Of a stretch of 64,000 nt of DNA, positions 18,027 to 24,506 are shown piece after piece (positions within the stretch are counted from its first letter, which is position 1; each line of letters begins with the position of its first letter). The notes below the pieces were generated by a model. The model saw only the letters and a program-made list of their open reading frames with translations. It had not been told where the DNA came from and made no database searches. A program made the position numbers and the translations under genes. The stretch covers positions 6,223,857 through 6,287,856 of the forward strand of contig CBDCXR010000004.1 of the NCBI GenBank assembly GCA_965223845.1, written 5' to 3'. The DNA is from Planctomycetota bacterium (lineage in GTDB: Bacteria; Planctomycetota; UBA8108; SXIK01).

Positions 18027-18296
18027 CACCACGAAGGGCACGAAGGACACGACGAGAAGAGATCGTAGAGAGGAAGAATGGAGTGTTACGAAACTAATGA
18101 GTTACGAGTAGTTCTACGAGTTAGTTCCCGAGGCAAAGCGGAGCAGCATCGGTAGCTTTCCGCTTGCCGAACATCGACTCGTCGCGGCAAGCGTACGCAC
18201 ACTCACTCACACACACACACACACACTCTCTCTCTCTCTCTCTCTCTCTCTCTCTCAATTCTTTCTTCCTTCGTGTCCTTCGTGCCCTTCGTGGTG
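18027..18296. mobile_element. MITE-like element or large hairpin: 26-bp perfect inverted repeats flanking a ~218-bp lower-GC core with a dinucleotide microsatellite
   Basis: Left arm caccacgaagggcacgaaggacacga at 18027-18052. Its exact reverse complement tcgtgtccttcgtgcccttcgtggtg is at 18271-18296. The core holds short direct repeats (gttacga.., acgagt(t)ag) and an imperfect hairpin ggcaaagcgga...tccgcttgcc. The right arm lies in the last codons of the FG-GAP gene and encodes HHEGHEGHEG. Confidence 0.35.
18209..18256. repeat. Dinucleotide microsatellite (AC)9(TC)15
   Basis: cacacacacacacacacactctctctctctctctctctctctctctctc read directly from the sequence. It starts at the stop codon of the minus-strand FG-GAP gene 18255..20099, so it is transcribed as (GA)n in that 3' UTR. 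Confidence 0.9.
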
Positions 18297-20099
18297 ATCA
18301 TTCTTCCCAGAATCCAAACCGACCAAGACCGTCATCCCCACCCCCTCCCCCCGAGACTCCAGCACGAAATCCACGCGCCCGTCGCCCGTCACGTCCCGCA
18401 CGTCGAGCCGCTCGTGCGACGCCGCGTACCCGTCCCCGAGCGGGATCTCGATCGTCGCTGATCGATTCGAGTAGCGCTCGCGCATCCGCGCGTACGCCTC
18501 ACCGCCGATGAAGTCGATCAGCGAGTCGAGCTCCCACCTTCGCTTCGTCGGGTGGAACGCCACGTCGCCGAGCTCGAACGTCGTCGCCGGCGGCGCATCG
18601 TTCGCGGCCGTCACGTAGACGCGCAGGTGGTCGTCGTCGTCGACGAACACCGCGTCGGTGCGCCCGTCGCCGTCGACGTCGCTAGCGGTGTAACGTCCCC
18701 GGGCTCGCCGCGCTTCGAGAAAGCGTGCGGCGAAGTCGCCGATATTCTCGACGATCCCGCGGAGCGCGGGGAACTCGACCGTGAGCGTCTCCTTTCGGTC
18801 CGGGCGGTGCGAGAGCTTTCGACCGCCTCGGTTGAAGTAACCGAGCACCTCGAACTCGATGCTCATCGGAACGAAGTACGCCGCGAGGAGTCGCGGGATG
18901 CTCGGCACGTCGAACTTCACCGCGACGAGATCGAGATGGCCGTCGCGGTCGACATCGAAGCTCGAGACGCCCTGAACGTCCCCGCTCAATTGACGCGCGA
19001 GGTGGGGACGGGAGAAGTCGATCCCGTCGCGACTCCCGAAGTACACGCGGAGCACGCGACCGGTTCCGATGAGGTAGTCCATCATGCCATCGCGATCGAT
19101 GTCGACTTCGTGCACGCGGATGTCGCTCCCGCGGATCTCGTCGAGGGGGCGCCGGCGTGGAGCCGACCGGGCCTCCGAACGCGAGTTCGCGGCGCGGAAG
19201 CGCTCGAGGTCGAGCGTGAAGCTCGGGGTGCGTGCGAACCCCTTGTCCCCCTGAAGATAGAATCGCCGTCCGCCGGAATGCACGGCGACGATGTCGACGC
19301 GTCCGTCCGCGTTGATGTCGCGGAGGTCGAGCCCGGGCACCGTGACCGAGAGCTCGAGCGGGTCGATGATCTCGGGGCCGCCTGGGTCGAGCTCGATCCG
19401 GTGTTTCGCCTCGAGGTGAAACGTCCCGACGAATCCCGCGCTGTCCGGCGTGTACACCTCGAAGCGATGGAGCCGAGGGATCACGACCTCGAGGTTGCCG
19501 TCGCCGTCGAGGTCGTGGAGGAGCGGAGCGGCGGTCGGGAGCACGGGAAGCGGGATCGGCCCACCGCGACCGGTGATCGCTCCGCGCCTGAGATCGAGCG
19601 GAGTAAACGCCCCCCCGGGGTCGCTCGCGAGCGCGTCGCGTCCGAACACGCCTCCGGTTCCTTCGCTCCTCGCCGCTTGGAGCTCGAGGTGCCGGTCGGC
19701 GAGAACTCCGCGCCTCGTGACCAAGACGACCTCCTCTCCCGGTCCGCCGCGCACGTCACCGAAATCGACGAGCGCCGGCTCATCGGGGAGCCGGAGGAAC
19801 TCGGCCGCGTCTGCGTCGAATCCGTCGACGGGCGACAGCCCCCAGACCTTGACGCTCGGTCCGTAGAAAACGAAGAGGGAGAGTGAACTCGCGGCGTCGT
19901 CGCCACGAACTCCCCAGTGGATCCGCTTCACCCCCGATCCGATCTCGAGTTCGAATCTTCGGTAGTCGGCGACCTTCGCCCGCTCTGCACCCGCCGCGCC
20001 GCGATCGCTCGCGCGGGTCGTCGCGACAGATCCGAGCCACGCAGTCGCGAGCGCCACGACGAGCGTTGTCGTCGCGCGCGACCCGCTTCGCAGCATCAT
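18255..20099 (-). CDS. Secreted FG-GAP/VCBS-repeat protein with a His-rich C-terminus
   Basis: Repeated Ca-binding beta-propeller blade motifs: DLDGDGNLEVVI, DINADGRVDIVAV, DIDRDGMMDYLIG, DVDRDGHLDLVAV, DVDGDGRTDAVFV, DVTGDGRVDFVL. The N-terminus is signal-like. The start overlaps the upstream gene's stop as ATGA. Confidence 0.7.
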   Translation of the reverse strand: MMLRSGSRATTTLVVALATAWLGSVATTRASDRGAAGAERAKVADYRRFELEIGSGVKRIHWGVRGDDAASSLSLFVFYGPSVKVWGLSPVDGFDADAAEFLRLPDEPALVDFGDVRGGPGEEVVLVTRRGVLADRHLELQAARSEGTGGVFGRDALASDPGGAFTPLDLRRGAITGRGGPIPLPVLPTAAPLLHDLDGDGNLEVVIPRLHRFEVYTPDSAGFVGTFHLEAKHRIELDPGGPEIIDPLELSVTVPGLDLRDINADGRVDIVAVHSGGRRFYLQGDKGFARTPSFTLDLERFRAANSRSEARSAPRRRPLDEIRGSDIRVHEVDIDRDGMMDYLIGTGRVLRVYFGSRDGIDFSRPHLARQLSGDVQGVSSFDVDRDGHLDLVAVKFDVPSIPRLLAAYFVPMSIEFEVLGYFNRGGRKLSHRPDRKETLTVEFPALRGIVENIGDFAARFLEARRARGRYTASDVDGDGRTDAVFVDDDDHLRVYVTAANDAPPATTFELGDVAFHPTKRRWELDSLIDFIGGEAYARMRERYSNRSATIEIPLGDGYAASHERLDVRDVTGDGRVDFVLESRGEGVGMTVLVGLDSGKNDHHEGHEGHEGRKN

Positions 20100-22701: not shown

Positions 22702-23532
22702 TCACTCCGTGACGTCGCGACGGACGAAGAGCGCGATTCCGATCGCGGCGCATCCGAGCGCGGTGATGCCGGGCACCGCCCACACGCAGAGGTGCTCGAC
22801 GGAGTCGTCGAGCCAGAGCACGTCGGTCCGCCCGTCGGCGAACGCGATCACGCCGGCGAGGTAGGACGTTCGATCGAACAGCGCGGGCAGGTAACTGTTC
22901 CATAGATAACGCGTCGCGCCGGAGCTGCCAGGCAAAACCGACTTCACGATTTCGAAGAAGAAGAAGACGCCGATCGCGACGCCCGCCGCACCGGCCGCCG
23001 TTCGCGCCGTGCACGAGATGAGAAAGCCGACGCTCGCGAGCGCAAAGATCGCCGGAACGATGTACGCGATGGCGACGAACGAATAGCGACGGAGCTCGTC
23101 GCCGGCCGCGAGGGGTTCGATCGCATCGCCGTAAACGTCTCCGAACGAGAAGTGGATCGCCGTCGAGCCCCAGGCGCACGCGGCGACGAGGACGACGAGA
23201 AGGAAGGCGGTGAGGAGGAGCGCGACCCAGCGCGAGAGCGCGACTTCGAGTCGCGAGACGGGTCCGGAGAGCACATTGCGGAGTGTGCGATCGTGCCGCT
23301 CGGCTGCGACGGCGACCGCGGCGTGGACGATGACGAGCAGCGAGCCGAGCAGGTACGCGTGTCCGAGCGCGCGCGCGAAGACGTAGTATCCCGTTTCGGG
23401 AGCGTCGCCGGCGAGCCACGCGACCTGAGGGAAGACGACGGCGAGCCCGCCGGAAAAGGCGAGAGTCGATAGCGAGCTCTTCCGCCGGCGCGCTTTCGAC
23501 GATTCGACGGCGAGGAGCCTGAGCAGGTTCAC
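22702..23532 (-). CDS. ABC-2 family transporter permease
   Basis: A ~276-aa polytopic membrane protein with six hydrophobic segments. It overlaps the upstream ABC ATPase gene by 4 nt, the typical operon arrangement. Confidence 0.65.
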   Translation of the reverse strand: MNLLRLLAVESSKARRRKSSLSTLAFSGGLAVVFPQVAWLAGDAPETGYYVFARALGHAYLLGSLLVIVHAAVAVAAERHDRTLRNVLSGPVSRLEVALSRWVALLLTAFLLVVLVAACAWGSTAIHFSFGDVYGDAIEPLAAGDELRRYSFVAIAYIVPAIFALASVGFLISCTARTAAGAAGVAIGVFFFFEIVKSVLPGSSGATRYLWNSYLPALFDRTSYLAGVIAFADGRTDVLWLDDSVEHLCVWAVPGITALGCAAIGIALFVRRDVTE

Positions 23533-24506
23533 GCGACGTCCTCGTGCTCGGGCCCCGCCCGTGCGATCGCCGCGGCAAAGACGTCTTCGAGGCTGCGCTC
23601 GAGCCGCCGGAGCGAGTGGATCTCGACGCCCGCGCCGACGAGGACGCGCGCGAGAAGCGGCGCGCGCTCGGGATCGATCACGATGTCGATCTCACCGCGC
23701 CGGGGCTCCGGATCGTCTGGCGTAGCATCGGCGCGACGACTTTCGTCTGCGACGCGGCATTCCGGCTCCGCGTTGAGCGCGCGTTCTGCGCGGGCGACGT
23801 CACCCACCTCGATCCGGTACCGAGGCTCGGCGGACCCGGTCAGCTCCGCGATTGCGCCGTCCTTGAGGAGTCGCCCGCGATGGATGATGGCAACGCGGGA
23901 GCAGACGCGTTCCACCTCGGCGAGGATGTGACTCGAGAAGAAGACCGTCGTTCCGTGCTCGCGATTCAGCTCGCGAACGATCGCGCGAAAGTCGCGGATG
24001 CCCTCGGGGTCGAGTCCGTTCGTCGGCTCGTCGAGAAGGACGAGTCGCGGCGAGTGGACCAGCGCGCAGGCGAGGCCCAGCCGCCGGAGCATCCCGGACG
24101 AGTACCCCGCGATTCTCCGGTCGGCGGCCGGCGCGAGCCCGACACGCTCGAGCCAACGGGAGGCCTCGCGATCGGCCGCGGAGCGGTCGAGTCCGAAGAG
24201 ACGCGCGTGAAGTCGAAGGTGCTCGCGTCCGCGCAGATAAGTCGGCGCTGCGAAGTCTTCGAAGAGAACGCCGATGTCGCGATAGACCGCGCGCGACCGC
24301 GGCGACTTCCCGAAGAGCGCGATCGACCCGCCTCGCGGTCGGAGGAAGCCGAGGAGCGCGCGCAGCGTCGTCGTCTTTCCGGCGCCGTTCAGGCCGAGAA
24401 AGCCGTGGATCGACCCCTCGGCGACGCGGAGCCGGAGCCGGTCGATGGCACGGAACTTTCCGTAGCCGAGAGAGAGCTCGCTCGTTTCGATCGCGTGGGT
24501 CGACAT
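23529..24506 (-). CDS. ABC transporter ATP-binding protein
   Basis: Walker A GLNGAGKTTTLRAL, the ABC signature LSSGMLRRLGLACAL, and Walker B LVLLDEPTNGLD. Confidence 0.9.
   Translation of the reverse strand: MSTHAIETSELSLGYGKFRAIDRLRLRVAEGSIHGFLGLNGAGKTTTLRALLGFLRPRGGSIALFGKSPRSRAVYRDIGVLFEDFAAPTYLRGREHLRLHARLFGLDRSAADREASRWLERVGLAPAADRRIAGYSSGMLRRLGLACALVHSPRLVLLDEPTNGLDPEGIRDFRAIVRELNREHGTTVFFSSHILAEVERVCSRVAIIHRGRLLKDGAIAELTGSAEPRYRIEVGDVARAERALNAEPECRVADESRRADATPDDPEPRRGEIDIVIDPERAPLLARVLVGAGVEIHSLRRLERSLEDVFAAAIARAGPEHEDVA

Follow-up and report, generated by a model that had tools for sequence, protein, structure and literature searches.

Five consecutive genes for an ABC pair and three exported proteins

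The DNA analyzed here, referred to as the window, is a stretch of 64,000 nucleotides (nt) from the 7.87-Mb contig CBDCXR010000004.1 (positions 6,223,857 to 6,287,856; assembly GCA_965223845.1) of a Planctomycetota bacterium. Positions 18255-24506 of the window are occupied by a run of five consecutive open reading frames (ORFs) on the minus strand, designated A to E from upstream to downstream. They encode the ATPase and the ABC-2-type permease of an ATP-binding cassette (ABC) system, an exported protein with two PDZ domains, and two exported beta-propeller proteins of the FG-GAP/VCBS type (Table 1).

Table 1. Positions in the window of the five cassette genes, of segments within them, and of nearby features (aa, amino acids)
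Feature	Positions	Strand	Remarks
Gene A, ABC ATPase	23529-24506	-	325 aa
Gene B, ABC-2 permease	22702-23532	-	276 aa, GTG start
Gene C, exported tandem-PDZ protein	21654-22694	-	346 aa, GTG start
Gene D, exported FG-GAP/VCBS beta-propeller	20096-21676	-	526 aa
Gene E, exported FG-GAP/VCBS beta-propeller, D paralogue	18255-20099	-	614 aa
PDZ1 of C	22311-22520	-	about residues 59-128
Low-complexity insertion of C	about 22080-22215	-	residues about 160-205
PDZ2 of C	21873-22079	-	about residues 206-274
Conserved C-terminal tail of C	21657-21842	-	about 60 aa
9-nt repeat in E	18267-18293	-	three copies
Divergent intergenic region, presumed operon promoter	24507-24668		162 bp, from A to the plus-strand gene near 24669
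Divergent membrane/helical-repeat gene	24669-25775	+	two predicted transmembrane segments, no Pfam match
30-nt tandem repeat	24690-24749		two copies, or four of a 15-nt subunit
Xylose-isomerase-like TIM-barrel gene	25810-26760	+	
Compound microsatellite	18198-18256		abuts the stop codon of E
Gene downstream of E	17035-17934	-	299 aa, no family match

The G+C content at the third codon position (GC3) was between 0.78 and 0.85 for the frames of A to E, which indicates that these frames are the coding ones. The filter, which used GC3 and the G+C content at the second codon position (GC2), together with a longest-first rule for overlaps, passed over long ORFs of the opposite strand such as those at 18552-19886 and 19883-21313. 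An initial annotation of the region had described five minus-strand genes as a tightly coupled operon with 4-nt ATGA overlaps or gaps of less than 10 nt. The ORFs were indeed present and the junctions tight, with the designation ATGA being slightly inexact. The A/B junction is a 4-nt overlap that reads GTGA; B and C are separated by a gap of 7 nt; C and D overlap by 23 nt when D starts with the ATG at 21676 or are 7 nt apart when it starts with the GTG at 21646. The D/E junction is an ATGA overlap, which is reduced to 1 nt when the second ATG of E is used, as it is in P0072, the 613-aa copy of E in the database. The domain assignments of the initial annotation were correct for all five genes according to Pfam (PF00005, PF12679, PDZ_2, and FG-GAP_3).

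Conservation and distribution of the cassette

Other loci were gathered by homologue look-ups with the PDZ protein, D, and E and by two collection scans, a narrow scan of genome contigs with the E alignment, which yielded three loci, and a metagenome scan, which yielded eight. With duplicates merged (L003 with L004; L007 with L014 and the nearly identical L015), 17 distinct loci other than the window were available. The order A-B-C-D-E was kept in 16 of them; the genomes are environmental and belong mostly to Planctomycetota. Eight contain the full set in the same order (L001, L003, L005, L006, L007, L018, L019, and L022), which makes nine together with the window, and eight more (L002, L008, L010, L011, L012, L013, L016, and L021) are cut by a contig end and consistent with this order. 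Identity to the proteins of the window ranged from about 50% down to 24 to 27%, with the PDZ protein going down to about 27%.

The genes flanking the cassette vary from locus to locus. In an all-against-all comparison of loci, with further loci being judged by their gene tables, only the five genes were generally common; the sole exception was L007, from a metagenome-assembled genome (MAG) labelled Planctomycetia, which has two upstream genes in common with the window as well. According to the gene tables, stop/start overlaps of 1 to 4 nt are also present in distant loci. The same order and the tight junctions in unrelated contigs indicate that the arrangement exceeds chance, and the five products are inherited together as a unit. 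In the initial annotation, the adjacency was to be regarded as fortuitous if related genomes lacked a linkage of the FG-GAP and PDZ genes with the ABC genes; with the linkage held in all but one of the other loci, this refutation fails.

A profile of the E family matched 193 representative clusters with an E-value of at most 1e-30 and 892 with at most 1e-10, among 1.84 billion representatives. The best 150 members were mostly 540 to 600 aa long, plus some shorter fragments, and the gene of the member at rank 150 (E-value 2e-38) is still preceded by a PDZ gene and one of the D type. The named relatives of the cassette are MAGs labelled Planctomycetia, Planctomycetota, or Planctomycetes; one cassette is located on a contig labelled Pseudomonadales, the binning of which is unverified.

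In L005 (9698-9964) and L006 (10705-10983), a gene for a small hydrophobic, apparently membrane-embedded protein (88 to 92 aa, 54% identity) directly follows E. Such a gene was not called after E in L003, L018, L019, and L022, and in the window E is followed by a repeat-rich spacer. The small membrane gene was therefore treated as a clade-specific extra, and its product may be a sixth component of the cassette in this clade.

The ABC core

Protein A matched the Pfam family ABC_tran (PF00005) with an E-value of 3.4e-26 and 92.9 bits at a cut-off of 25. Its motifs are intact, with the Walker A motif GLNGAGKT at residue 38, the signature YSSGM at 135, the Walker B motif LVLLDEP at 155, and the H-loop SSH at 191, and the ATPase looks active as judged from these motifs. 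A C-terminal extension of about 100 residues gave a weak match to a DrrA-like C terminus. The top NCBIfam match was the DrrA subfamily TIGR01188 with 212.8 bits, below the cut-off of 312.45; A passed no NCBIfam cut-off, the scores for DrrA, GldA, and the ATPase of the pyrroloquinoline quinone (PQQ) system all being too low. With a score under the DrrA cut-off, A is a generic ABC ATPase that cannot be assigned to DrrA.

Protein B matched ABC2_membrane_2 (PF12679; E-value 3.3e-14, 53.2 bits at a cut-off of 27.2). Hydropathy and the positive-inside rule predict six transmembrane helices with both termini in the cytoplasm. The permease does not have a periplasmic domain of its own; its periplasmic loops, residues 121-153 and 201-251, are acidic, and the loop residues P216, D220, S223, G234, and D237 are invariant. 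A search of the Protein Data Bank (PDB) with the single B sequence did not give a match, and a profile of six orthologs matched NosY as the sole PDB sequence (7o0y_D, E-value 5.3e-5, in the N-terminal half of B). NosY is the nearest solved relative of the permease. In NCBIfam, B did not match any curated polymer-exporter family, and there was no equivalog for B, C, D, or E. L018 (3561-5405) and L022 (5018-6865), two distant versions of the cassette, each encode a fusion of A with B, 614 or 615 aa in length (hhalign probability 98.9).

The exported partners C, D, and E

A hydrophobic, signal-peptide-like N terminus was found in C, D, and E and in nearly all of their full-length orthologs listed. 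In C, this signal or anchor comprises residues 14-32 and is followed by the two PDZ domains and the conserved tail. C matched PDZ_2 in two stretches (E-value 1.3e-22), and the profile of its family aligned at profile positions 40-247 with the PDZ1-PDZ2 tandem of DegP/DegQ (22kg_A, E-value 4e-28), covering residues 266-475 of DegP. At the level of the single domains, the PDZ domains of C matched models of DegS, RseP, and DegP. A protease domain, PF13365 or PF00089, was not found in C, and its matches in NCBIfam and in the PDB-profile search were confined to the PDZ region. Conservation was strongest in PDZ1, with the invariant motif V-E-N-S-P-A; the tail with the consensus F-x-I-P-L-L ... L-W-F-I-x-F-S-x-G had no match in the PDB-profile search. 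The DegP/DegQ-like tandem leans mildly toward a handling of proteins or peptides over an export of adhesins. Adhesin export or assembly and a shuttle for protein quality control had been the two functions suggested initially, and both are conjectural.

Several distant C orthologs have a cysteine residue right after the hydrophobic N-terminal stretch and appear to be lipoproteins, judging from lipoboxes read by eye; a motif search flagged P0012 alone. In the C protein of the window, the PDZ domains are separated by a low-complexity insertion of about 50 residues in which T, R, S, and A are frequent, and this insertion is missing from all aligned orthologs. An exact look-up of this C protein gave no recorded match.

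D and E both matched FG-GAP_3, D with 89.3 bits (E-value 2.5e-25) and E with 74.0 bits (E-value 1.5e-20) at a cut-off of 26.9. D contains about seven blades with five acidic loops of the DxDxDG type, and the propeller of E, which has six such loops, is irregular and interrupted by helical insertions. These loops are the usual structural Ca2+ sites of FG-GAP repeats, as in the propellers of integrin alpha chains. The AlphaFold2 models of D (predicted local distance difference test score, pLDDT, 80.6; predicted template modelling score, pTM, 0.82) and E (pLDDT 84.2, pTM 0.82) are all-beta structures and match a propeller fold, that of E in part only. The two proteins are likened to propellers of the integrin alpha type, including those of integrin alpha, the PVL lectin, CRTAC1, TcB, and ITFG2. 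They are paralogues with 25% identity, colinear over 467 residues (E-value 3e-14). At every locus compared by tblastn, D of the window best matched gene 4 and E gene 5, which indicates that the duplication is older than the spread of the cassette.

The C terminus of E in the window is a histidine-rich tail, HHEGHEGHEG, of which the three copies of the 9-nt repeat encode HEGHEGHEG. Since it falls outside the part of E that aligns with orthologs, the tail is probably a recent repeat expansion. It could bind metal.

Comparison with known systems

NosY is an ABC-2 subunit with six transmembrane helices, and NosFY provides the anchor for NosD in the periplasm (PMC8457098). The cassette resembles NosDFY(L), the ABC complex for the maturation of nitrous oxide reductase (PDB 7o0y), in three respects: an ATPase is combined with a small permease of the PF12679 type with six transmembrane helices, an exported partner thought to be seated on the permease is encoded in the same operon, and there is a lipoprotein accessory, NosL in the one case and C of the distant cassette clades in the other. 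The differences concern the partner, which is the beta-helix protein NosD there and a PDZ tandem with two FG-GAP propellers here, and the similarity of B to NosY, which is weak and limited to the N-terminal half. The NosD-type domain PF05048 was absent from C, D, and E, in which Pfam found PDZ and FG-GAP domains only, and neither nosZ nor nosL nor nosR occurred among the neighbours in the window or in the gene tables read for the related loci. Membership in NosDFY was rejected because a NosD partner and, in the loci read, a linkage to nosZ, nosL, or nosR are missing.

The GldA/GldF/GldG system of gliding Bacteroidota, with which the cassette had initially been compared, is apt as an analogy. 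Like the cassette, it brings together a permease of the PF12679 type, an ATPase, and an exported accessory protein without a known role, and neither serves the import of solutes. The scores, however, do not assign the cassette to a Gld system, and this assignment was rejected: A reached 168.7 bits with the GldA model TIGR03522 at a cut-off of 402.6, B had no GldF match in NCBIfam (E-value up to 0.1), and GldG was not represented, with no ABC_transp_aux domain found in C, D, or E by Pfam. The cassette also belongs to another phylum, and further gld or spr genes were not present among the neighbours scanned.

One product of the Ped operon of Pseudomonas putida, with the ABC system PedA1A2BC, is likewise a beta-propeller protein without a known function (PMC6839425). 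PedA1A2BC has a substrate-binding protein, which is the design of an importer, and a YVTN propeller, whereas the cassette has no binding protein and FG-GAP propellers; D and E matched neither the YVTN model nor any NCBIfam propeller model. Membership in PedA1A2BC or the PQQ system was rejected since A reached 157.5 bits with TIGR03864 at a cut-off of 302.25 and a gene for a binding protein is missing.

C is an exported protein that shares the PDZ tandem of the HtrA proteases DegP and DegQ and differs from them by lacking the trypsin-like protease domain, by its additional conserved tail, and by the apparent lipoprotein nature of its distant orthologs. Without a trypsin-like domain to be found, the identification of C as an HtrA/DegP serine protease was rejected.

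PADLOC gave no match for B to E and generic models of the AAA/ABC ATPase type only for A, so that the cassette was not assigned to defence. Literature searches for the combination of domains did not reveal a paper that combines these parts. Together with the failed tests for Nos, Gld, Ped, and HtrA and the missing NCBIfam equivalogs, this agrees with the earlier statement that no characterised system matches. The cassette is a genuine module, conserved and uncharacterised, of the kind in which an ABC-2 core is combined with exported accessory proteins.

A tentative model for the function of the cassette

ABC-2 motors that serve periplasmic partners, such as those of NosDFY, GldAFG, LolCDE, and FtsEX, bring the energy of ATP into an envelope that is free of ATP, and new sets of partners for such cores have tended to reveal new envelope processes. 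By analogy, the cassette may encode one ABC machine of the cell envelope with a new set of periplasmic partners, which handles proteins in a mechanotransducing or hand-off manner; the probability of this interpretation is put at about 0.4. A2B2 would be an ABC-2 core in the style of NosFY or GldAF and would act as the motor or gate for C, D, and E, which are exported and would assemble in the periplasm on or near this core. D and E, as an ancient paralogous pair of propellers with Ca loops, would provide a binding platform, possibly as a heterodimer. C would be an HtrA-type PDZ tandem that has lost the protease domain and gained its C-terminal tail, and it would capture the C termini or beta-strands of client proteins or peptides. 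Binding and hydrolysis of ATP in the cytoplasm would be relayed via the permease to the periplasmic partners in the NosDFY mode, so that a client in the periplasm or extracted from the membrane would be bound, handed on, or released, instead of a soluble solute being pumped. The physical complex and mechanotransmission are what we infer from the analogous systems, and protein or peptide C termini are suggested as the client by the HtrA-type tandem in C.

Several observations weigh against such a protein-handling machine. The match of B to NosY is of modest significance and restricted to the N-terminal half of the permease, and fold searches with D and E returned generic propellers only, which give no functional clue. 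PDZ domains and FG-GAP propellers are versatile, and the client may be a glycan, a lipid, or a metal instead. Finally, L017, a close relative, contains C-D-E without adjacent ABC genes as the sole exception to the ABC linkage, which indicates that the trio may not strictly need a neighbouring ABC pair. In L017, the trio is preceded at positions 1-1340 by minus-strand genes for a CDP-alcohol phosphatidyltransferase-like protein and a small EamA-like membrane protein, as read by eye from the translations.

Alternatively, the cassette may possibly be a conventional ABC-2 exporter whose substrate is hydrophobic, lipid-linked, or polymeric, for example a glycan of the surface, a lipid, or a lipopeptide, with C, D, and E as downstream receivers in the periplasm or at the surface that assemble or anchor the substrate. 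This would match the initial suggestion of a module for adhesins or surface polymers. The variable flanks, on the other hand, do not keep a gene for a glycosyltransferase, a polymerase, or another biosynthetic enzyme beside the cassette, B lacks a match to a curated polymer-exporter family, and the HtrA-type PDZ tandem points to peptide ligands.

A sensor of envelope stress or another regulatory device is unlikely. In this case, C would sense the C termini of misfolded envelope proteins as the PDZ domains of DegS or RseP do, and signal transduction or resetting would fall to the ABC pair and the propellers, in a manner comparable to FtsEX- or BceAB-like signalling systems. The domain-level matches of C to DegS, RseP, and DegP and an ABC core without an obvious substrate-binding domain are consistent with this function; a protease, an anti-sigma factor, a kinase, or a transcription factor is, however, not kept in or beside the cassette, and the Ser/Thr kinase encoded 6 kb away in the window (8691-12134) is missing from the other loci.

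Metal trafficking, comparable to that of copper by NosDFY or of lanthanides by PedA1A2BC, would require that the DxDxDG loops of D and E handle Ca2+ or ions similar to trivalent lanthanides, and it is quite improbable. NosY as the nearest solved relative of B, the sub-threshold match of A to TIGR03864, the propeller in the Ped operon (PMC6839425), the 11 acidic loops of D and E together, and the histidine-rich end of E in the window all fit this explanation. They are opposed by the ordinary, structural nature of such Ca2+ loops, by the position of the histidine tail outside the ortholog-aligned region, by Ped and Nos family scores that were all under the cut-offs, and by the lack of a consistently linked substrate-binding protein, metallochaperone, or metalloenzyme. 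A fortuitous adjacency of the ABC pair to functionally unrelated PDZ/FG-GAP genes, as L017 and a distant D-like FG-GAP protein in a different gene context in L020 might indicate, is hardly credible with an order that is kept in 16 of 17 other loci at 24 to 50% identity, flanks that are unrelated, and stop codons that overlap with start codons.

Coming back to the ABC machine with protein clients, its most specific form would be an undescribed class, encountered here mainly in genomes of the Planctomycetota type, that combines a NosFY-like motor, an integrin-like propeller heterodimer, and a protease-less HtrA PDZ adaptor and that captures envelope proteins by their C termini, extracts them, or hands them over. 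This form is rather doubtful; if it were true, the cassette would provide an ATP-dependent device for protein handling in a compartment without ATP of its own. Irrespective of the client, the set of partners on the ABC-2 core is new, with a PDZ tandem that resembles HtrA but lacks the protease and with two FG-GAP propellers that are ancient paralogues, and the unit is conserved over a deep divergence in organisms of the Planctomycetota type, the envelope biology of which is poorly understood. It offers a defined target of five genes with about 190 family representatives and two confident structural models. No open question of long standing is affected by the result, and the function of the cassette is one that we infer.

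Surroundings of the cassette in the window

The intergenic region between A and the divergent gene is the presumed location of the operon promoter. A scan for sigma-70 promoters did not find a site, which is uninformative for a non-model phylum. Scans of the window for Rfam families and tRNAs were empty, and a scan for intrinsic terminators gave three terminator-like sites, all inside genes and fewer than expected from shuffled sequences.

The divergent membrane/helical-repeat gene and the TIM-barrel gene behind it are the sole flanking genes common with another cassette locus, L007 (36% and 28% identity, respectively). The 30-nt tandem repeat at the 5' end of the divergent gene encodes a repeated "RTASLR(M/T)EP" at the N terminus of its product.

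On the other side, the spacer downstream of E comprises 320 bp, is rich in short repeats, and opens with the compound microsatellite, (CA)n followed by (CT)15.5, which in the direction of the genes reads (GA)n(GT)n. The gene behind it is not kept beside the cassette elsewhere; its product has a cysteine-containing hydrophobic N terminus and is probably a lipoprotein, as far as this N terminus indicates.

The wider neighbourhood is rich in genes for large signalling and secreted proteins, a content that would fit a planctomycete-like organism. They are a Ser/Thr kinase of 1147 aa with TPR repeats (8691-12134, minus strand), a HEAT-repeat protein of 896 aa (12352-15042, plus strand), two dockerin-bearing proteins (6217-8154, minus strand; 29072-30310, plus strand), and a protein of 1101 aa with an LptD_N/LptA-like domain at its C terminus (30735-34040, plus strand).

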